IMG/VR virus record: IMGVR_UViG_3300032038_000003 | Location: 32,001-96,000 of that record | DNA: 64,000 nucleotides | DNA from: a virus | Taxonomy: Duplodnaviria; Caudoviricetes | Strand: one strand, 5' to 3' | In this document: piece by piece, positions 25,293 through 50,451 of the stretch | How positions within the stretch are numbered: the first letter of the stretch is position 1 | Layout of the letters: each line of letters starts with the position of its first letter | Program-made: the position numbers and the translations under genes | The notes under the pieces: generated by a model | The model's database searches: none | The model's input: only the letters and a program-made list of their open reading frames with translations | What the model was told of the DNA's origin: nothing

Positions 25293-25970
25293 ATGGCTGG
25301 AGAAAAAGAAACAAAAGAAGTCATTGAGGAGGAATCTAAAGGCTTTGATTACAGACATGCAGCGTCTTTCAAGGTGTCTGATAAGTTTAAAGATAGATTC
25401 ATGACACGTTCTGCTGGCGGTCCTACAATGAGCGTAGATGGTCTGGTAGCATTAGGCCATGTAAAAGGATTATGGAAAATCGATGTAGAGATTTTACAGT
25501 ATCCAAATACAGATAATGGCAGAGAATGTGTATGTAAGGCTATCGTAGGCGGATACGGATGGGATCCGATTGAAGAGAAAGTAATCAGAGTAGAATTTAC
25601 AGATATTGGTGATGCAAGTCCAGCGAATACAAATGGACAGGTTGCAAAGGCTCTTATCCGTATGGCTTCTACAAGAGCAATCGGTAGAGCATTAAGAAAA
25701 TATACCAATATCGATATGGTATGTACCGAAGAACTTGGTGAAGATGATATCTCTACTGAATCAATGGAAGAAATTGCTTCTGTACAGATGGTTGATCAGC
25801 AGCAATTAATCACCATGAAAGGTTTGATTCAGCAAAAGGGTATCGACAAGGCTACTTTTGAAGCAATGCTTACCAAGACTTTTAATACAAGCGATTTCCA
25901 AAGATTGACTTTTGAACAGGCTAATACAATGATTCAAATTCTGAACAATTATGTTGCACCTTCGAAGTAA
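25293..25970 (+). CDS. Putative Rad52/Sak-like single-strand annealing protein
   Basis: IGDASP.N...RMASTRAIGRALR motif; next to recA. Confidence 0.55.
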   Translation: MAGEKETKEVIEEESKGFDYRHAASFKVSDKFKDRFMTRSAGGPTMSVDGLVALGHVKGLWKIDVEILQYPNTDNGRECVCKAIVGGYGWDPIEEKVIRVEFTDIGDASPANTNGQVAKALIRMASTRAIGRALRKYTNIDMVCTEELGEDDISTESMEEIASVQMVDQQQLITMKGLIQQKGIDKATFEAMLTKTFNTSDFQRLTFEQANTMIQILNNYVAPSK

Positions 25971-27695: not shown

Positions 27696-28616
27696 ATGAA
27701 GAAAATAAAATCATTATTAGGATTATGCCTAATCCTATCTCTTGTAATGATAGGATTCCCTGTAAGTACAACGGCACATGCACAGGAAAACAGTGTTGTA
27801 GTAACACATGAAATGCTTGGAGATAACAATACAACAGAAGTTGTTCGTCTTACAAGTAGAGTAGTAGAGGTTAAAGACGGAGCGTTCTCTGGTTTAACCG
27901 CATTGAAAGAAATTCGTGTTGATAGCGATAATCAATATTATGCTTCGTGTAACGGATGCTTGTATAACAAAGATTATACTGTCTTGATATGTATTCCACA
28001 GAATACAACCAGTATTCAAGTAAAAACCAGCATTACAAGTTATACACCACATGCATTAGATGGATTGGCACAATCACGTAAAGATGCGTTAAATCAGTTT
28101 TTAGGCATAAGTGGACCAACTGAATATTCTGGAGGTAGCAATACTACAACAGCTACACCTACAGATAATCAGCCACAGAATAATCCAGTTGTAACACAAC
28201 CTACAAATAACAATACAGATTTCTCACAGTACGTATATACAAATAGTAACGGACAGAAAGTATTTAAGTATACTGGTAGTGGTAATTCAAGCATCATTGT
28301 ACCAGAAGGAGTAGAAATTATCGAAGGCTTTGCTCCTGGATATGGTGATTTTAATGATGAAATTACTTATGTATATTTACCAAGTACATTAAAAAGAATG
28401 TACACTACTGGTATGTATTGCAAAGAAAAATATAACTGGGATACTAATTGTTATAACGTATTATACCAGTGTAGAAATTTACAAAAGGTTAAGGGTGGTA
28501 ACCATGCATACCAGTGCAATGGAAATACTGTTACAAGACCTGGAAATATTACGGTATGGTCAACAAGCGGATTAATACCATACGATTCGCAGCAATATTA
28601 CAATTATAACAGATAA
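27696..28616 (+). CDS. Secreted BspA-type (LRR_5) leucine-rich repeat protein
   Basis: Signal peptide ending AHA; V..GAF.G..L.EI.V...N..Y...NG.LYNKD.T.LI..P; IIVPEGV..I; VYLPSTLK. Confidence 0.75.
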   Translation: MKKIKSLLGLCLILSLVMIGFPVSTTAHAQENSVVVTHEMLGDNNTTEVVRLTSRVVEVKDGAFSGLTALKEIRVDSDNQYYASCNGCLYNKDYTVLICIPQNTTSIQVKTSITSYTPHALDGLAQSRKDALNQFLGISGPTEYSGGSNTTTATPTDNQPQNNPVVTQPTNNNTDFSQYVYTNSNGQKVFKYTGSGNSSIIVPEGVEIIEGFAPGYGDFNDEITYVYLPSTLKRMYTTGMYCKEKYNWDTNCYNVLYQCRNLQKVKGGNHAYQCNGNTVTRPGNITVWSTSGLIPYDSQQYYNYNR

Positions 28617-28633
28617 TAAGGAGATAAAACGGA

Positions 28634-29569
28634 ATGGATATCAATTCATACACAGAAGAGATTGCGAAAGCAATTAGTGAACAGAACGAAAACTTAATAG
28701 TTGAAGTGTCGGACGTACAGAAGAACAATGGTCTGATGCTTAAGGGTATTACAATGCGTACCAAAGATTGTAATATCTCACCAGTGATTTATACGGATGC
28801 ATTTTATGAGCATGAGCTTAGCACAGATGAAGCTGTTTCAAAGATTATGGAAATCTACAATGCTCATAAAGATGGCATGAGTAATTTTGATGCAAATATC
28901 GTGCAGAACTTTGACGCTATCAAAGATAAGATCGTCGCACGAGTAGTTAATAAGAGCCGTAATGAACTTATTACTAACTCATGTCCTTATGCACAGTTCG
29001 GTGATCTTATAGTGATGTTCGTTATTTTCGTTGAACAGGGAGAGCCACTTGGCGGTACAGCGTCCATTAAGATTACCAATGAGATGATGAATTCGTGGAA
29101 GGTTAATCTTGGACAGCTTATTGCGGCGGCATATGAGAACACCAAGAAGTTATTACCGCTTGAAGTGATTACCATGTCAGAAATCCTTAAGCAGATGATG
29201 GAACGTGCTGGTGGTTCATCTCTAGAAATGGAGACAGAACTTGCAGCTCCAGACCATCTTATGTATGTGGTTAGCAATACATCAAGACAGTTCGGTGCGT
29301 ATTTCCTTACCGACAGAGAGGCTTTGATTAAGGTTGCTTCAGAGATTAAGGAAGATCGGTTCTTCATTCTTCCATCTTCAATACATGAGATGATTGTGAT
29401 TCCAGAATCACAAGTAGAGGACACAGACGGCTTAATGGCAATGGTTAAAGAGGTAAACGCTACACATATCGCTCCAGATGAAGTGTTGGCAGACAATGTA
29501 TACTCTTTTGACGCAAAGACAGAAGAGTTACGTACTATCGATGGTACAATTATTCCATTTATCGCTTGA
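28634..29569 (+). CDS. DUF5688 family protein
   Basis: KNNG...GI, ISPVIY, FILPSSIHE, MVKEVN...DEVLADNVY. Confidence 0.75.
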   Translation: MDINSYTEEIAKAISEQNENLIVEVSDVQKNNGLMLKGITMRTKDCNISPVIYTDAFYEHELSTDEAVSKIMEIYNAHKDGMSNFDANIVQNFDAIKDKIVARVVNKSRNELITNSCPYAQFGDLIVMFVIFVEQGEPLGGTASIKITNEMMNSWKVNLGQLIAAAYENTKKLLPLEVITMSEILKQMMERAGGSSLEMETELAAPDHLMYVVSNTSRQFGAYFLTDREALIKVASEIKEDRFFILPSSIHEMIVIPESQVEDTDGLMAMVKEVNATHIAPDEVLADNVYSFDAKTEELRTIDGTIIPFIA

Positions 29570-29601
29570 TATTGTAACGATACTTTGCTATAATTGTAGC
29601 A
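29566..29601 (+). promoter_or_regulatory. SigmaA-type promoter of the SbcD/SbcC-like cluster
   Basis: TTGATA-17bp-TATAAT with TG extension; -10 inside imperfect palindrome TGCTATAATTGTAGCA. Confidence 0.7.
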
Positions 29602-29628
29602 TAATATTACAGAAAGGTAGATTACTGT

Positions 29629-32046
29629 ATGAAAATCTTACATATAACAGACTCACATGGTACAGCGAAATCACCAGAATCAAGGACAGATGTATATTAT
29701 CTGTCCTTTTTAAAGAAAATGTATGAACTTAAATATGTCATTCAGCAAAATGATATTAAGTTAATCATACATACTGGTGATTTGTTCCATTCAGCAAGAG
29801 CATCGGATAAGTTCGCTGGTCAGTTAGCAGAGATTATCAAATCATACGGTATCCCTATGTATGTAGTTCCTGGTAACCATGATATTGAAGGTTACACAAT
29901 CAATACTTTAGATCAGACAAAATTAGGGTTATTATATAAAACTGGTGTTGTAAAAGAGCTGGATAGGGGTAAAAACCCTATCCAGCTCAAACATCAGAAA
30001 GAGAATCTGAATATAAGTATTGTTGGACAAGAATACTATAAGGATATCGATACTGGTGACATGAGCGACTTTGAGATGCGTAACAATAATCCAAATGCCA
30101 ATTTTAATATATTGGCTATTCATGGATATCTATGCAATTCTCCGCAGCATCCAGATGTTAAATGTACTCAGTGTAAAGATATTGTGACAGACGCAGATGT
30201 TATTCTTGCTGGTCATTTTCATGAAGCATTTGAATATCATGGTGCTGATTTTAGTGTGTATAATCCTGGTTCTATGATGCGTGTTGAACAAACAACATAT
30301 AATAAGACTCATTTGCCTCAATATGGTATTCTTGAGATTACCAATAATAATGGTGTAGTTCAGCACACATATACAATGCATCCATTTAAAGTAGCAGAGC
30401 CTTCAGAAAAGGTATTCGATTATACTTTAAAGAACCAGAAGAAAAAGACATTAATTACACTTGAAAATTTCAAGAACAGTATTGCAAATACTAATTTCAA
30501 TTCGAATCTTAACACGTCTATTGAGAATATTATCAGTAGCGTAGCTGGTAACTTATCTGTTACACAGGATATTATAGATAAAACAATTGATGTCTATCAT
30601 GATGCTTTGAATAATTCTCCAGACAAACTCGAAGTACAGCAAGGTTATATTGCTGATGTCAGCAGAAAGATAATCAAGCACGTTGAGATTAAGAATTTCC
30701 AGTCTCACGAATATACTATTGTAGAGTTTAAGGATGGATTGAATACCATTATAGGCGAATCTAATAGTGGTAAAACAAGTATCTTAAGAGCAATACGATG
30801 GTGTCTTGATAATGATCCTAAAGGATCAGACTTTATTACTACTGGAAGAGACGAATGTTCGGTTACTGTCGTGTTTGATGACGGTACTTCTATCATTCGC
30901 AAAAGGACTCGTAATGATTCTGGTACGTATGATGTAGTAGGAAAGACTATTCAGCCAGACGGTACTGTATCTAAATGGACACAAACGTATAAAGGATTTG
31001 CGAATAATCTTCCAATAGAGATTATGAACATCCATCAAATGCCTAAAGTAAATCTTACTAAAGATATATGTACGCATCTGAATATGATGTCTCAGTTGGA
31101 TGGACCGTTCCTTGTTACAGAAAGTCCTCAAGTTAAGGCAGCAATTATTGGACGTTTAACTGGTACTCAGATTATTGATCTTGGTATTAAAGAAACCAAT
31201 AAGAAAATCTTGAGTAATTCTAAGACCATTAAGACATATACTCAAGAAAAGACAGATAGAGAAAACGAATTATTCAGATATCAGTATCTGCCATTTTATG
31301 AACGTTATGTAAGAGGATTCGATTTGATTTGTAAGTATTGCGAATCAAAGATGAATACCATTACAAATGTCGAAATGATTCTTGATGAATTATATAAGAG
31401 ACGTAAAATGATTAACGACATAACTAATAATATTGTTCAGATACAGAATAATATTGATATGTATAATATCATGCTTGCCATTAAGACATATATGGCAAAA
31501 CAGTTAGAGATTATTGATATGTATAATGAATTAAAGGATACAATGTTACATATTAAATCTCTTCAGAAGCAGATAAAATGGTTAATCATTCTTACATCGT
31601 TCAGATCTTTTGTTGACGCTACAAACTTGAAAGTAGGATTATATGGACAGTTAACGAACGGTTATACAAGAGCAACCTCATTACATCAGCAAATATCAGA
31701 TAATACTAATTTGTGTAATAACCTTACAGCAGAGATTACAGTGATAGAAACTGCAAAGAAATGCTTTAATGATATTTACAAATATGCACAAGTATTATCG
31801 CAAGATATCAGTAATACTAAAGGCGTATATGACAAATATGTTATTCGTCGTCAAAATGCTAATCAGCAAAGCGATATTGCTGTACAGTGGAATGTTGAGG
31901 TTAATCATCTTACAAGTCAGATAGAAGAGTTAACCAATCAACAGAAACAAATAATTAAACAGAATAATATCTGTCCTTGTTGTGGACAAAAGATTACATC
32001 TGAAGAACACGTACTCAATATCAATAATTTTATGAAAGGAAGATAG
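29629..32046 (+). CDS. Fusion: SbcD/Mre11 metallophosphoesterase + N-terminal half of SbcC/Rad50 (Walker A, coiled coil, zinc hook)
   Basis: TDSH, TGDLF, PGNHD, IHG, GHFH, NPGS; then KNFQSH, GESNSGKT, SQ Q-loop, coiled coil, CPCCG near the C-terminus. Confidence 0.9.
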   Translation: MKILHITDSHGTAKSPESRTDVYYLSFLKKMYELKYVIQQNDIKLIIHTGDLFHSARASDKFAGQLAEIIKSYGIPMYVVPGNHDIEGYTINTLDQTKLGLLYKTGVVKELDRGKNPIQLKHQKENLNISIVGQEYYKDIDTGDMSDFEMRNNNPNANFNILAIHGYLCNSPQHPDVKCTQCKDIVTDADVILAGHFHEAFEYHGADFSVYNPGSMMRVEQTTYNKTHLPQYGILEITNNNGVVQHTYTMHPFKVAEPSEKVFDYTLKNQKKKTLITLENFKNSIANTNFNSNLNTSIENIISSVAGNLSVTQDIIDKTIDVYHDALNNSPDKLEVQQGYIADVSRKIIKHVEIKNFQSHEYTIVEFKDGLNTIIGESNSGKTSILRAIRWCLDNDPKGSDFITTGRDECSVTVVFDDGTSIIRKRTRNDSGTYDVVGKTIQPDGTVSKWTQTYKGFANNLPIEIMNIHQMPKVNLTKDICTHLNMMSQLDGPFLVTESPQVKAAIIGRLTGTQIIDLGIKETNKKILSNSKTIKTYTQEKTDRENELFRYQYLPFYERYVRGFDLICKYCESKMNTITNVEMILDELYKRRKMINDITNNIVQIQNNIDMYNIMLAIKTYMAKQLEIIDMYNELKDTMLHIKSLQKQIKWLIILTSFRSFVDATNLKVGLYGQLTNGYTRATSLHQQISDNTNLCNNLTAEITVIETAKKCFNDIYKYAQVLSQDISNTKGVYDKYVIRRQNANQQSDIAVQWNVEVNHLTSQIEELTNQQKQIIKQNNICPCCGQKITSEEHVLNINNFMKGR

Positions 32047-32047
32047 T

Positions 32048-32392
32048 ATGGACAATTTAGCATTAAATTTGAAGAGCATTCAGGACCAGATTGATGCGTT
32101 AAACAAACAGCTGAACGAAGCTCAGAATAAAAAACTCACTGCTGAAGTTCATTTACAGAACGAACAGCAAGAATATGAGGCACTTGAGAATCAACTTAAG
32201 GAGCTTACTGGTCTCAATGATATGAATGAGATCGAACAGTACATCGCAAGCAAGTCTACAGAACTGAATGGTATTATGCAAGACTTGGCTCAAGTATCTA
32301 ATACTGTAAACAGTCAGTACACATTCAGTGAAAATGATGTACAGATGTTGAAAGGTATAGTAGATAAGTACAATATCCCGATAGGAGAATAA
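32048..32392 (+). CDS. Coiled-coil protein (probable middle segment of split Rad50)
   Basis: Heptad pattern; lies between the Rad50 N- and C-halves; own RBS. Confidence 0.6.
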   Translation: MDNLALNLKSIQDQIDALNKQLNEAQNKKLTAEVHLQNEQQEYEALENQLKELTGLNDMNEIEQYIASKSTELNGIMQDLAQVSNTVNSQYTFSENDVQMLKGIVDKYNIPIGE

Positions 32393-32394
32393 CT

Positions 32395-33117
32395 ATGGAA
32401 GTTACAGGCTTATGGAAGGTTATCCAGGATCGTTCAAAAGAATTACAGAGCGGATATATTTCAAAGAAAGCCATTAAAGACCGTATCGAAGATGAAGTAA
32501 TCGATTATACCAATAAGATTAATCAGTTAACGGACGAGAATGACATTTTAAATAAGGTCATTCTTGTCCTTACTGAATCTTCAAATATTGCACGTAACAA
32601 CGCAAAGAACCATTTCGAGAAAATCATAACAGAGGCTTTACAGTATGTTACACAGTCTACAGATTATGAATTTGTTATTCAAGAAATGGTTGATAGGTCT
32701 AAAGCATCTTATGAGTTTTTTATTAAAACGACAATCAACGGAGAAGAATCGTTGCAAAGTCCTAAAGATGCTAATGGTGGAGGTTTCGTAGATATTATAT
32801 CCGTTGCAGCGAAGTATGCATATTTGGAATTATTCAACGATCCAAAAATACAGTGTGGAACTGTTTTCCTTGATGAACCAGGAAAAATGATTGACGAGCA
32901 GAGATCCATTAAGTTCGCAGAATATATTAAAGAGCTTGGTAAAAATTATAATAAGCAAACGATTATGATTACTCATAATACCAGCTTGAAAGATATTGCG
33001 GACCAGACTTATTATGTTTCTCAGAATGCCAATCTTATTAGCCAAGTATCTGAATTACAAGATGTGCCATTGGCTAATATAGAAAATATAGTAAAGGAGC
33101 AGTTAGATGGACATTAA
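32395..33117 (+). CDS. C-terminal half of SbcC/Rad50 ABC ATPase
   Basis: Signature-like ANGGG, Walker B/D-loop VFLDEPGKMID, H-loop MITH; no Walker A. Confidence 0.85.
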   Translation: MEVTGLWKVIQDRSKELQSGYISKKAIKDRIEDEVIDYTNKINQLTDENDILNKVILVLTESSNIARNNAKNHFEKIITEALQYVTQSTDYEFVIQEMVDRSKASYEFFIKTTINGEESLQSPKDANGGGFVDIISVAAKYAYLELFNDPKIQCGTVFLDEPGKMIDEQRSIKFAEYIKELGKNYNKQTIMITHNTSLKDIADQTYYVSQNANLISQVSELQDVPLANIENIVKEQLDGH

Positions 33118-33850
33118 ATACAAAGATAAAGATGTCGAGATTTCTATCAAGAACGTTAATAAAAATGCTATTTTAACAAACGACGAGTTAGAGAGCGTAG
33201 TAAAAATTATTAATTTGTTTAAAGATTTCAAGACACCGATGAAAGAATTGTTACCAACAACGGTTCAAAAACCAGCAGAAGAACGACAATCATCAGTGGC
33301 TAATAATGATGATCGCCCAGTAATCCGTGATCGTATTCCAAATCAAGTTGATTTATCAGAATACGAGATTAAACAGGCTGTTACACAAGAACCAATGATC
33401 AGATGTCCAGAGTGTGGACAATCATCTAAGGCTATTGTACGTATCAATGATACGGAGAATTATTTACTTCGCAAAGTAACAAAGAACAACAAGAAGACAT
33501 TCGAAACTGTTGTGGCATTAGAAAGCGAAGAAGCGATTACTAATATCTTAAAGCCAGAAGATGCGAATGTTATGGATTATCATAATGATATTATGAAAAT
33601 CAAGCAGAATAAAAAGCTTAAAGGTACCGATCTTAACGTATCTAATGAAACAAAGATTCAATGTCCTTGTTGTCATAAGATTAACCAATTTTCTAAATGG
33701 GTAGATGCTTTTAAAGATCCATTATTATTTGGATTTGAAACTGAAAACTTATGCGAAGTATGTGGCAAAGAAGCAGTCAAAGCAATTGACGAAAATAAAA
33801 ATGAAATTATACAATGTGAATATTGCGGTTATAAAGACCCTGTTGTATAA
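33107..33850 (+). CDS. Zn-finger protein
   Basis: CPEC, CPCC, CEVC, CEYC. Confidence 0.65.
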   Translation: MDIKYKDKDVEISIKNVNKNAILTNDELESVVKIINLFKDFKTPMKELLPTTVQKPAEERQSSVANNDDRPVIRDRIPNQVDLSEYEIKQAVTQEPMIRCPECGQSSKAIVRINDTENYLLRKVTKNNKKTFETVVALESEEAITNILKPEDANVMDYHNDIMKIKQNKKLKGTDLNVSNETKIQCPCCHKINQFSKWVDAFKDPLLFGFETENLCEVCGKEAVKAIDENKNEIIQCEYCGYKDPVV

Positions 33851-33902
33851 TAATGATTACAAAATGTTACTTAAAACTACAAAAGGAAAAGGAGAAACAG
33901 TC

Positions 33903-34370
33903 ATGAGACCAGAAAGAGACACTGTAACCGAGGTATACGAAGATCGGTACAAGAATGATTGCTATGCAGACGTAAGCTATTTTATTAATGCAAAAAAGAG
34001 AGTAATCGTTTGTAAGGTAGAGCCTTATGTTATGGACGAACAATTTTCATTCTTCACGACAAGAAAGGGCTTGGATTACAAGCAGTCGATGGCAAAATCA
34101 TTCTTTGAGATGTGTGGAGAGACATCTACAAGTTTTGTAGGTAAGGCTGTGTGTATGCCAGAAGACGAATTCGATGTAGAGTTCGGAAAGAGACTTGCAT
34201 ATGACAAGGCAATGTTCAAGCTGTTAAATGCTAAGAAGAAGTTTTTTATGGAAAGCATTAAAGACCTTGAATCATACATTGCAGCAGACAAGGAACTCAT
34301 TGATGATGTTGATAAACAAATCGCAAAGGCTACCGAGCGTTTTGAGAAAAAGATCAAGGAGGTAATGTAA
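33903..34370 (+). CDS. Hypothetical phage protein
   Basis: ATG 33903 after AAAGGAG; GKAVC.PEDEFDVEFGKRLA motif. Confidence 0.65.
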   Translation: MRPERDTVTEVYEDRYKNDCYADVSYFINAKKRVIVCKVEPYVMDEQFSFFTTRKGLDYKQSMAKSFFEMCGETSTSFVGKAVCMPEDEFDVEFGKRLAYDKAMFKLLNAKKKFFMESIKDLESYIAADKELIDDVDKQIAKATERFEKKIKEVM

Positions 34371-34654
34371 TGACATTACAAGAAGCGTTAAATACAACTT
34401 TATCTCCAGATAAAGTAAAGGATATGGAAACTTCTGAGCTGGTTAAATATCTTGTTGATAATCAAGTATTTGATTCAGAGGCAGATTTACGTATGTTCTT
34501 GATCGAAGGCATCCAGAGGGCTGTACGTCTTGATGATGAATTTCCAATTAAGATATATACATCAGAAGACGAAGAGGTTCCAGAAGATCATAAGTATGTC
34601 GATGTAGGACCGCAGCTTACAGACGAATATATCGAAAATAACATGCACGAGTAA
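34370..34654 (+). CDS. Hypothetical protein
   Basis: TAATG coupling, followed by terminator. Confidence 0.6.
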   Translation: MTLQEALNTTLSPDKVKDMETSELVKYLVDNQVFDSEADLRMFLIEGIQRAVRLDDEFPIKIYTSEDEEVPEDHKYVDVGPQLTDEYIENNMHE

Positions 34655-47811: not shown

Positions 47812-48156
47812 ATGATAGAAATAGATAACTTTAATAGACAGCTGGTTTATAGAAACTCTGTAAGAACAGAAGATGGTTCGATATTACATGTTGCATTTAT
47901 ATTAGATCCACATGATATAGAAATTATTTATCAGTGGAGACAAAGTGAAAATGATAAAGTAGATATCGATGAAAATATTTCTGAATATCTTACAACAGAG
48001 GAGTTAAAACGATATAATAGCCTCGATGAAAAGCAACAGCTAGAGTTCATTACAAAGGCTGCCGATTTGAAAAGACATTTTATGGACAGCGACAACATTG
48101 CATGGCGAGAAGCAACTGAGATGGCTATCAAAGAAATTAAGTTACAATATTTGTAA
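47812..48156 (+). CDS. Hypothetical protein
   Basis: GGAGG RBS. Confidence 0.6.
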   Translation: MIEIDNFNRQLVYRNSVRTEDGSILHVAFILDPHDIEIIYQWRQSENDKVDIDENISEYLTTEELKRYNSLDEKQQLEFITKAADLKRHFMDSDNIAWREATEMAIKEIKLQYL

Positions 48157-48232
48157 CTTTATGTTGCATTTATTTTTCCTCCGTGTTAATATGTTTATAT
48201 CTAATAAACATACTATATACGGAGGTATTAAT

Positions 48233-48431
48233 TATGCTAAACGCAACTGTTATTAATGTACCAGAGGAATCAGAAGTAGCTATTGATTATGTAATATGCC
48301 CACATTGCGGCTCACAAATGGTAAGGAATAAAATGGATAATCCATATACTATTCATGGAAGATCTTATATTTGTGAGAACTGTGGTGCTGATGAAATCAT
48401 TAGCAATCCAACAGAAGAGGAGATTTATTAA
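48233..48431 (+). CDS. Small Zn-ribbon protein
   Basis: GGAGGT RBS before MLNAT; CPHC and CENC. Confidence 0.55.
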
Positions 48432-48437
48432 AGACCT

Positions 48438-48602
48438 ATGAAAAATCCAAAGAAACTTACTCGTACACAGAAAGAAAAGCTTACTAAGAAACATCTTGAC
48501 GCATCTGAATACGTCATGATTGCGGAAGACGCTTATACTTTTACTGTTCAGAAGAAGAGTAAGATTGGTACAACTGAAGAAAAGATTACTTTTAATAAAT
48601 AA
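48438..48602 (+). CDS. Small basic protein (54 aa), DUF6906-like
   Basis: MKNPKKLTRTQK start, GAGGAG RBS; not in ORF track. Confidence 0.5.
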   Translation: MKNPKKLTRTQKEKLTKKHLDASEYVMIAEDAYTFTVQKKSKIGTTEEKITFNK

Positions 48603-48645
48603 AATAAGGCGGTGTAGGATAATCCTACACCGCCTATTTGTTTTT
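48599..48645. terminator. Bidirectional terminator at the convergence of the two gene blocks
   Basis: AGGCGGTGTAGGAT / ATCCTACACCGCCT, A-tract on the left and T-tract on the right. Confidence 0.85.
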
Positions 48646-49009
48646 ATTCGTCTGCCGCTGGAAGATCTGGAGCTGCTTCAATAGCTTCAGCTTCTTTCTT
48701 AGCAATACTTTCTCTTGTAGCAATAATCTCTTTAAGAGATACTAATGCATCTTCGATTAACTTGCTAAGTTGAGCCTCTGAAACAAAGAATGTAATTACT
48801 GGATAATTCTTCTTGATATATGTATAAGCTTCAGCGAACTTGATACGTCCAGTGTTAGATCCCCAAGCATCTTCTGCTTTTGCAACAGCATAGAGAGCTG
48901 CCTTTTTAAGAATGTCCTGGCGATATCTGATAAGATAAACAGTTATCGCAATAATAATAATACAAACAACGATACATAATACTGGGTTCTGACAAATAAA
49001 ATCTAACAT
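48644..49009 (-). CDS. Putative holin (LL-H-like, single N-terminal TM)
   Basis: AGGAGGT RBS before MLDF; TM then AALYAVAKAE..WG..TG..K motif. Confidence 0.65.
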   Translation of the reverse strand: MLDFICQNPVLCIVVCIIIIAITVYLIRYRQDILKKAALYAVAKAEDAWGSNTGRIKFAEAYTYIKKNYPVITFFVSEAQLSKLIEDALVSLKEIIATRESIAKKEAEAIEAAPDLPAADE

Positions 49010-49022
49010 CTCTCTTACCTCC

Positions 49023-49421
49023 TTAATGAATATTGTAAAGACCATAATGATACATAAAATCTTTTTCACATTGCTGTTGATCAGCGAAATCACTTTCTTC
49101 ATCTACACCACGCATTTCGTAAAAATATTCTTTTAGGTCATTAATTTCGTTCTTTGCTGGAACAAATCTAGCATTTTCATGTTGCTCAGAAACTTCTTTA
49201 ATGAGTTCATCAGTCCATAAATCATCACGATAAGCGACTCTAAGCTTATTGCTAGACTCGTATGATTGACCCCAAAGATGTTCGCCCTCTAACTCATAAG
49301 AAATAAGATTAGCAATCTCGTCAAGATTTTCTTCGAGTTCTTCAGATAAGACACCAGAACTAGCTAATTCATGAAGAACAGTACAAGCTTCTTGTCGAGA
49401 TAAATAATGATCTTTGTCCAT
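49023..49421 (-). CDS. Hypothetical protein
   Basis: AGGAGG RBS. Confidence 0.6.
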   Translation of the reverse strand: MDKDHYLSRQEACTVLHELASSGVLSEELEENLDEIANLISYELEGEHLWGQSYESSNKLRVAYRDDLWTDELIKEVSEQHENARFVPAKNEINDLKEYFYEMRGVDEESDFADQQQCEKDFMYHYGLYNIH

Positions 49422-49425
49422 GTGC

Positions 49426-50451
49426 TTAATCCTCCTTTTGATTTTGCATTGCTTCTTTAAGTTTTGCTATGGCTTTACGTTTATGACTGCCAATCGTAGA
49501 ACGAGAATATCCATATAAATTTGCGAGAGTGTCTTCGTTTTGATGTCTTGCGTATGACAATACAAGAAGTTCTCTTTCATATGGAGTTAACGATCTAAAG
49601 ATTGGACTGCATACAGCTCCATTGATCCAATTAAAATTCAATGCGTCGTCACTGTAAATATCAATTTCTTCTTCTTTAACGGTTAATAGATTGCTGTTTT
49701 GTAATGCAAGCTGACGATCTATCATATCTATAACCGTATTATATTCGAATAATGCCTTTTCATCAACAGGAACCATAGAATGTGTAATATTATTAGTATC
49801 TGTATCATAATCATTTTCATCTTCGTCGGTCAATTGCATTAAATTAGCACTAATTAATGGGTCTTTTGATAAGTCCTTAAGAAAATGAAAGGCTTCAAAA
49901 TGAAAACATTTTTTGACATACAAATGAAAACTACCATTTGGTTTATATTTAGGATCATCTGGATCAGTAATAATTTTATATTTATTAGCCATATTTAAAA
50001 GAGCAAGTACGAGAGTATTATAAATATCTCCATACTCATATCTTTTAAATAAAGAATAAATATAATCACAAGTATCCTTAATATCAAACTTTTCTTTTGC
50101 TTTGCTACCAGAGAAAAGCTTGATAAAATTTAAGACACTAGGATAAATCTTGTTAATATCTTTTCCAGGAATTTTTACATACGGCAATTTATGCAGCACA
50201 ATAAAATGAGCATAAGTATGTAATGTTCTATGAAATGCCTTGATGATGTATTCAGTTGCTTCTCTATCCCCATCTTTAAAAAGAACAAGGTTACGCTGTA
50301 GATTAGCATAATCTTGTTCAGTAAAATTCGTAGTATCATCTTGTGGATCGAAGTCATTTAGATAAGTATCGTCTAATGCTCGTAGATATTTATAATCATC
50401 GTCGTTTAATGAATTTTCAAAAGCCTGTGATTTTGTTTGTTCTTCTTCCAT
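49426..50451 (-). CDS. Divergent sigma-70-family RNA polymerase sigma factor
   Basis: KDGDREATEYII (region 1.2/2.1-like), SFHLYV (region 2.3-like), LTPYERELL.L.Y...TLANLYGYSRSTI...KRKAIAKLK region-4 HTH. Confidence 0.8.
   Translation of the reverse strand: MEEEQTKSQAFENSLNDDDYKYLRALDDTYLNDFDPQDDTTNFTEQDYANLQRNLVLFKDGDREATEYIIKAFHRTLHTYAHFIVLHKLPYVKIPGKDINKIYPSVLNFIKLFSGSKAKEKFDIKDTCDYIYSLFKRYEYGDIYNTLVLALLNMANKYKIITDPDDPKYKPNGSFHLYVKKCFHFEAFHFLKDLSKDPLISANLMQLTDEDENDYDTDTNNITHSMVPVDEKALFEYNTVIDMIDRQLALQNSNLLTVKEEEIDIYSDDALNFNWINGAVCSPIFRSLTPYERELLVLSYARHQNEDTLANLYGYSRSTIGSHKRKAIAKLKEAMQNQKED

Follow-up and report, generated by a model that had tools for sequence, protein, structure and literature searches.

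A split Mre11–Rad50 family seen in a jumbo-phage locus: an ATPase divided over two genes and a small protein that may rebuild the return strand of its coil

The A, B, and C genes of the window

Three adjacent genes, here called A, B, and C (Table 1), lie in a 64,000-nucleotide (nt) window of a jumbo-phage genome, i.e., the whole stretch of DNA analyzed (positions 32,001–96,000 of IMG/VR record IMGVR_UViG_3300032038_000003, a 210-kb virus record that is estimated complete and was sampled from bovine gut; positions below are those of the window). A joins a Mre11/SbcD-type nuclease to the N-terminal half of a Rad50/SbcC ATPase, C holds the C-terminal half, and B is a small coiled-coil protein encoded between them. 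The locus is the sole clear Rad50-like ATPase gene of the genome, its neighbors within the window include genes for recA, uracil-DNA glycosylase, and primase, and the three genes make up a real and conserved system that has apparently gone undescribed as such. Mre11–Rad50, SbcCD, and T4 gp46/47 carry out ATP-gated DNA-end processing for recombination-dependent replication. The intramolecular fold-back coil of the ATPase counts among the defining features of Rad50 and SMC proteins, and it is still debated whether the long coils and the hook act as a ring gate, an end sensor, or an allosteric link.

The original prediction, made from the bases of the window, had placed a phosphoesterase, Walker A, Q-loop, and outgoing coil on A, ending just after a CPCC hook, and an atypical signature, Walker B, and H-loop on C. 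Pfam matches (Metallophos at residues 1–199 and AAA_23 at 352–608 of A; the C-terminal part of SMC_N at 157–215 of C) and motif searches (in C at 127–131, 158, and 192) bear out the three open reading frames and these assignments. Specifically, the metal-binding motifs of A start at residues 8 (DSH), 50 (GDLF), 82 (GNHD), 165 (H), and 195 (GHFH) and are 88–100% conserved among 137 family nucleases; the best PDB match of the nuclease domain is P. furiosus Mre11, and that of both ATPase halves is archaeal Rad50. The interval between nuclease and head, which we checked for a capping domain and a Rad50-binding helix-loop-helix, is only ~85 amino acids (aa) long and mainly helical, and the tail at A261–346 probably holds the ATPase-binding helices. 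In gp8 of Bacillus phage 0305phi8-36, considered below, the capping/Rad50-binding part was noted as lacking (PMC3175470). The helical arm of A measures 265 aa, with the CPCC standing 20 aa before the C-terminus between Rad50-like flanks; the family profile matches the hook structures 1l8d and 6zff, and CPCC 782–785 is a predicted Zn site. Since P. furiosus Rad50 hook peptides of ~45 residues have full Zn affinity (PMC9569753), a hook with a 20-residue stub plausibly still dimerizes two arms.

Walker A and Q-loop in the N-half and Walker B and H-loop in the C-half are thus all present, spread over two chains. The signature is atypical, as predicted, but the “ANGGG” first proposed is one residue out of register: aligned to P. 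furiosus Rad50, N-G-G-G-F stands in protein C for L-S-G-G-E (Ser to Gly, Glu to Phe/Val), and the canonical L/C-S-G/A-G-E/Q is not found there. Across the family the Ser position is Gly throughout, and most members read R-G-G-G-V/I. At the D-loop position most members carry Ser; the Asp is kept in only 3 of 110 family C-halves, among them the window's C (D167). Because the signature Ser is replaced throughout and the D-loop is mostly Ser, ATP coupling may differ from that of canonical Rad50.

The genes are separated by 1 nt (A–B) and 2 nt (B–C), and each carries its own ribosome-binding site, as the original prediction held (Table 1). The 805/114/240 layout recurs in independent assemblies, contigs assembled from two DNA runs and from one RNA run read straight across the two junctions without insertion, deletion, or skipping, and the ratio of nonsynonymous to synonymous substitution (dN/dS) against a relative (locus L187) is 0.05–0.09 for each of the three genes. 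We therefore exclude assembly error. The catalytic residues are all retained and under purifying selection. The RNA contigs cover the locus in parts, and transcription level and strand are not readable from them. The candidate promoter in the gap before A is the top sigma-70-type match in 28500–34500 (11 of 12 positions, with TG); it is a consensus match only, in a region where the total of such matches is no higher than chance.

Table 1. Features of the A/B/C locus, in window coordinates.
Feature	Position	Strand	Description
Candidate sigma-A-type promoter	29566..29594	+	TTGATA, 17 nt, TG-extended TATAAT; in gap preceding gene A
Shine–Dalgarno, gene A	29613..29618	+	−9.3 kcal/mol
Gene A	29629..32046	+	805 aa; Mre11/SbcD-type nuclease fused to N-terminal half of Rad50/SbcC ATPase
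Phosphoesterase domain, A1–260	29629..30408	+	five metal-binding motifs: D8/H10, D51, N83/H84, H165, H196/H198
Nuclease C-terminal helical tail and short linker, A261–346	30409..30666	+	homologous to end of unfused 327-aa nucleases
ATPase head N-half, A347–518	30667..31182	+	Walker A GESNSGKT 376 at 30754–30777; Q-loop Q489 at 31093–31095
Proximal arm, A517–583	31177..31377	+	predicted antiparallel pairing with C1–67; family covariation mapped to the window protein
Distal arm, A584–781	31378..31971	+	about four 47-aa helical modules, eroded in the window clade; no covalent return strand
CPCC zinc hook, A782–785, and 20-aa return-helix stub	31972..32043	+	family profile matches hook structures 1l8d, 6zff
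Shine–Dalgarno, gene B	32034..32040	+	inside the end of A; −9.6 kcal/mol
Gene B	32048..32392	+	114 aa; conserved helix-turn-helix coiled-coil protein; proposed modular return strand
Shine–Dalgarno, gene C	32383..32387	+	inside the end of B; −9.6 kcal/mol
Gene C	32395..33117	+	240 aa; 67-aa coil and C-terminal half of ATPase head
C signature NGGGF, 127–131	32773–32787	+
C Walker B (FLDEP 158)	32866–32877	+
C H-loop (ITH 192), H194	32974–32976	+

A split shared by phages and Bacillota

With alignments of the C-half we gathered ~260 loci from viral, metagenome, and GTDB collections, 228 of which hold both halves; a single-sequence scan of viral contigs gave no matches, so that alignments were required. 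At none of the 228 are the N- and C-halves in one open reading frame. A contiguous SbcC in close relatives, which the original prediction had named as the finding that would overturn it, is thereby excluded, and its call for a check of the layout in related phages is answered by a split kept at 228 of 228 loci, with a B homologue at 219. Its view that the genes are not products of frameshift decay stands for the same reason, together with the independent assemblies and the low dN/dS. The hook is likewise terminal across the family: of 203 complete N-halves that are distinct from one another, 199 stop 4–44 aa past a CxxC, and a single chain with an intramolecular coil and a midpoint hook is not what the family shows. 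A search at E 1e-10 for longer proteins (434–2000 aa) bearing the C-half found none, a result that counts only weakly against their existence. Three N-halves without a hook (L043, L063, L249) look broken, and an apparent extra split of A at L005 proved to be an assembly gap.

The cut position is kept across phage and bacterial proteins that are 20–30% identical. The gene order varies (four orders), all nine combinations of frame offset at the junctions were observed, and at some loci the pieces are kept apart by unrelated genes or by the nuclease; in Microbacterium phage Magritte the halves are ~39 kb apart (genes 155 and 2; L261:5001-6053 and L262:284-934). Judged by this conservation, the split is a design that has been maintained and not gene decay. 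All 80 GTDB loci inspected (the best 80 of 326 matches) are from Bacillota, and recA lies directly upstream, within 0.8 kb, in 62 of the 72 bacterial loci with enough flank. One such cassette (L049:181-6627) follows a cluster that, naming the genes from their sequences, we take to be rimO-pgsA-cinA-recA. A position behind the recA cluster suggests a housekeeping, possibly damage-induced, repair role. The split system does not simply replace canonical SbcCD: in most of five host genomes there appears to be a further SbcD-like gene next to a long ATPase, and one draft genome carries the split set alone.

Fusion of the nuclease to A is far more restricted. It occurs in 33 loci, on one side of one branch (22 representative rows, support 94, FastTree only), in a clade of jumbo phages that includes Bacillus phage 0305phi8-36, a distribution consistent with one fusion of adjacent genes in a 0305phi8-36-like lineage. 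The split is older and far wider than this fusion, since Bacillota chromosomes and many phages carry the split and the fusion is confined to one phage clade.

Three further phages add observations of their own. The Magritte N-half has no CxxC hook at all, gene 2 has no B homologue beside it, and the genome gave no match to the family nuclease. In the 309-kb genome of Tunturiibacter phage Tunturi_5, the family C-half gp14 (L263:5941-6606) lies at 19 kb and the SbcD-like gene at 125 kb. Phage vB_BboS-125 carries an intact 326-aa family nuclease reading frame (L003:4998-5978) that is unannotated in its GenBank/RefSeq record.

With archaeal Mre11–Rad50 (P. furiosus, M. jannaschii), E. coli SbcCD, and T4 gp46/gp47 the family shares the five-motif phosphoesterase, the bipartite ABC head, and a CPxC hook with Rad50-like flanks. 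It differs from them in an ATPase on two chains with a third small protein, a hook at the C-terminus of chain A, a 67-residue return coil on C, an arm of 47-aa modules, and a signature of the form N/R-G-G-G-F/V; its nuclease, ~327 aa, leaves no room for a full capping domain and in the window clade is fused to the N-half. Rad50 heads made of two chains are known from the laboratory (PDB 1f2t/1f2u, 1ii8, 3qkr), where N- and C-halves fold together as separate chains. Those heads are engineered and lack the long arm or hook, whereas here the split is natural and both are kept.

The closest cultured phage is 0305phi8-36, in which gp8 (769 aa) is a full-length orthologue of A (31% identity, E 4e-110), gp5 the orthologue of C, and gp7 a member of the B family, with an unrelated gp6 between gp7 and gp5. 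Yoshida, Claverie and Ogata (2011) described gp8 as an SbcD–SbcC fusion lacking one P-loop NTPase segment (PMC3175470); the missing ATPase half, the small gene, and the cut at the hook were not located there. Most other fusions in that paper, e.g., Mimivirus R555, contain the whole ATPase, unlike the window's fusion, which has the N-half only, as do that paper's two exceptions, gp8 and Anaerostipes caccae B0MG68. The B. cereus prophage phBC6A51 (BC1852/BC1854/BC1855/BC1857) and the recA-linked four-gene cassette of Bacillota have the same cut and the same small gene, but there, unlike in the window, the nuclease is a separate gene. Their annotations are piecemeal (“SbcC,” “hypothetical,” “chromosome segregation ATPase”); BC1852 and BC1854 change together in a transcriptome (PMC4195751), and papers on the prophage name its genes only as SbcC-/SbcD-like repair genes. 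We found no account of the three-gene, three-chain design in the literature searched, which did not cover the 2020 ABC ATPase classification (Krishnan et al.). Recognition of the split family accounts for a mis-annotated gene block that many Bacillota carry behind recA and that culturable Bacillus phages have as well.

Pairing in trans and the place of protein B

The structure and covariation work used alignments of the family and a homologue from bacteria in place of the window's own proteins. Across 85 locus-paired sequences (residue numbering of locus L049), the top three charge anticorrelations between N- and C-halves are N205–C26, N212–C19, and N219–C12 (r −0.5 to −0.7). Spaced seven residues apart, these pairs lie on one antiparallel diagonal that extends to invariant D164 and near-invariant R68; none of 1000 column permutations and none of 300 locus shuffles reached the ladder score, and charge swaps are seen in several lineages. 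This covariation supports an antiparallel A–C coil that would form in trans, with A517–583 pairing with C67–1 when mapped to the window. Because of that register C covers only a quarter of the arm (67 of 265 residues); the stub after the hook can cover ~20 more, and ~180 arm residues have no return strand. The original prediction that the returning coil is shorter than the outgoing one was right in direction, yet the difference is large and not slight. Its three-chain complex assembled in trans is supported for A and C by covariation and for B by linkage and, weakly, by a complex prediction, except that a 1:1:1 complex cannot complete the coil. Therefore either several B copies or arm-to-arm pairing is needed.

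Arm lengths in the family cluster near 143, 197, 247, 294, 342, and 435 aa, autocorrelation along the arm is highest at 47 and 94, and modules were gained or lost at least 21 times on the tree, with B (~81 aa) and C (~217 aa) constant. B homologues are present at 219 of the 228 two-half loci, with weak matches at 7 of the other 9. Searches from three different seeds converge on one B family, and the library-wide profile search returned 357 clusters at E 1e-10, with short stand-alone proteins making up 148 of the best 150. The protein has a core of ~80 aa, with a helix of ~44 aa, a turn (family motif G-V-x-P), and a second helix of ~28 aa. Its first helix aligns without gaps to the first 47 residues of C (profile probability 87%, E 3.6e-6); alignment of the B profile to the arm of A had no support (4%). 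In the register that the C pairing and the B–C alignment together predict, the conserved lysines K11, K18, and K21 of B lie opposite acidic positions of every one of four distal modules, and this register ranks 2 of 47 when modules are pooled. Consistent with it, position 219, which faces C, is basic on average and its repeat equivalents are acidic. Several B copies rebuilding the return strand are favored because the B helix resembles the C coil, the C coil binds one module, and the module register fits.

Structure prediction adds less. For the bacterial homologue, a complex of two N-arms, two C, two B, and Zn scored 0.40 (best control 0.00), with contact agreement between runs of at least 77% and a partner pLDDT (predicted local distance difference test) of at least 69, and the score fell to 0 once the N-arm was replaced. 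Among pairs of known status, 58 of the 80 solved ones and 2 of the 110 mismatched ones attained this mark. The prediction is weak because at scores of 0.60 or under only 7 solved pairs, and both mismatches, reached it, and it does not separate the stoichiometry models because no interface was returned. It thus lends weak support to a model in which B would bind within the complex; membership of B is supported by near-universal linkage and, weakly, by this prediction. AlphaFold2 models of the homologous N-half and B gave secondary structure only, and a fold search with B found generic long helices (Z ~6).

We propose that A, B, and C form one ATP-dependent DNA-end-processing nuclease of the Mre11–Rad50/SbcCD/T4 gp46–47 kind, which, going by the family and by the neighboring recA and primase, probably resects ends for RecA-dependent phage recombination and replication. 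Each ATPase head would be built in trans from A and C and held by the 67-residue antiparallel coil, a step supported by the sequences; two A chains would share one Zn through their C-terminal CxxC, by established Rad50 chemistry, and two heads would dimerize on ATP, gating the two fused nuclease domains. This much, taken alone, we consider highly probable. The rest of the A arm would be a row of 47-aa helical modules, each taking one copy of B, whose first helix would be the detached equivalent of C's first 47 residues and whose second helix would overlap the next strand. The stoichiometry would then be A2 C2 B(2n), with n ~4 here, and arm length could be altered by adding or deleting modules within one gene. 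For this B-tiled arm we judge the case about evenly balanced, and the proposal as a whole stands or falls with it at the same even chance. Slightly short of even is our confidence in the broadest statement, that a return strand made of small identical proteins lined up one to each 47-residue module marks a widespread undescribed Mre11–Rad50 family of phages and Bacillota, with the nuclease fused on here.

Several observations speak against the B-tiled arm. The window clade's own arms are off-step (253–264 aa) with weak periodicity, the window's B lacks two of the three conserved lysines, and the models and covariation come, as said, from relatives. The idea for the charge test came from prior inspection, and the test is modest (z −1.9), with its strongest signal in the first distal module; covariation of B with the repeats across loci is not significant (p 0.15 and above), and in ribosome-binding-site strength B has no advantage over the N-half gene (54 vs 46 loci, p 0.95). 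B is also far more conserved than the repeat modules, and the strongest coupling within it, 6–71 (z 13), is at odds with simple 47-aa tiling and implies a B–B contact; covariation ladders for B self-pairing were not significant. As to activity, what speaks against the proposal is the family-wide Gly at the signature Ser and the Ser at the D-loop Asp of most members.

Part of this evidence would be accommodated by an A2 B2 C2 complex in which each arm takes a single B (or a B2 clamp sits there) beside the N-terminus of C, and in which the two A chains hold together through their distal modules, forming a constitutive rod that extends to the zinc hook. Conservation of B far beyond that of the modules, the B6–B71 coupling, the absence of a visible translational excess of B, and the peak of charge complementarity at the first distal module all point that way, and the complex prediction reached the mark with only two B copies; one distant phage N-half (Magritte) does without the hook. 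Yet the g–e′ charge covariation or complementarity of an in-register parallel dimer was not found, the acidic stripe persists through all distal modules, and a rod of this kind should tolerate heptad-sized length changes, whereas most lineages change in 47-aa steps. We regard it as the main rival, if a rather unlikely one. The arm might instead fold back as an intramolecular hairpin, with the hook near the head and B capping the junction, which would satisfy the hydrophobic stripe without extra chains and would agree with a low-confidence break that AlphaFold2 places at 256–263 of the homologue's arm. But no antiparallel covariation diagonal lies within the arm (best −1.43, null mean −1.54), and modules are gained and lost singly, odd and even counts both occurring, so we give the hairpin little credence.

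Readings that do away with the separate chains fare worse. The spacing of only 1 and 2 nt in the window would suit one continuous Rad50 produced by programmed frameshifting, read-through, RNA splicing, or protein trans-splicing; recoding is excluded by the variable gene order, the nine frame offsets, and the genes that intrude between the pieces (the ~39 kb between the Magritte halves included), a Pfam scan found no intein family, and the RNA contig crosses both junctions unskipped, so that the continuous chain is hardly credible. The atypical signature and D-loop, and the want of a Pfam family for B, might mean that the genes are pieces of a decayed SbcC or that B is an unrelated neighbor. 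Decay is already refuted by a cut conserved across proteins 20–30% identical and by dN/dS below 0.1 for all three genes, and B's linkage is kept through four gene orders in a family of mostly short stand-alone proteins; together we rate these as very improbable. T4 gp46/47 also degrades host DNA, and a role in conflict, be it host DNA degradation or sensing as in Lamassu, might be proposed in place of recombination. Lamassu is derived from SbcCD and has a small third subunit (PMC12663957), and LmuABC resembles the present system in its hook-bearing ATPase; it differs in that LmuB is a single chain, LmuC stems from the C-terminal domain of SbcD, and the effector is unlike Mre11, whereas B resembles the return coil. 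In a scan of four genes, Lamassu and Wadjet subunits (LmuA, LmuC; JetA, JetB, JetD) were not found, and PADLOC matches were confined to generic P-loop and coiled-coil regions; in bacteria the genes occupy a fixed site behind recA, and in the phage they lie among replication genes. A conflict role appears improbable to us.

The long arm of A cannot fold back on itself as textbooks show. With head, arm, and return strand on different genes, and with a natural length series in 47-residue steps, the family offers parts that can each be removed, titrated, or swapped without re-engineering the register of the coil, and the fused phage form fixes the ratio of nuclease to ATPase and brings reconstitution down to three genes.

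Neighboring genes and genome features

A 247-aa protein with three CxxC zinc-ribbon pairs (33107–33850) has its start inside the end of C or just behind it in 12 of the 22 fused-clade loci and in zero unfused loci, and it may be a clade-specific partner or merely co-transcribed. Within its gene, a 511-bp stretch (33177–33689) is swapped for a same-length divergent allele in two other DNA runs. Adjoining recA, a 225-aa protein (25293–25970) is kept 5–8 kb upstream of the cassette in 15 fused-clade loci; at a guess, it could be a single-strand annealing or single-stranded DNA-binding (SSB)-type factor. Directly upstream of A lie a signal-peptide protein with weak BspA-type leucine-rich repeats and a DUF5688 protein (27696–28616 and 28634–29569).

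Scans of the window for tRNA genes and Rfam families gave zero matches. At ~48000–50000, where + strand replication genes give way to a − strand arm, GC and AT skew reverse sign. The first 50 bases of the genome reappear 167 bp before its end, which suggests a circular or terminally redundant assembly.

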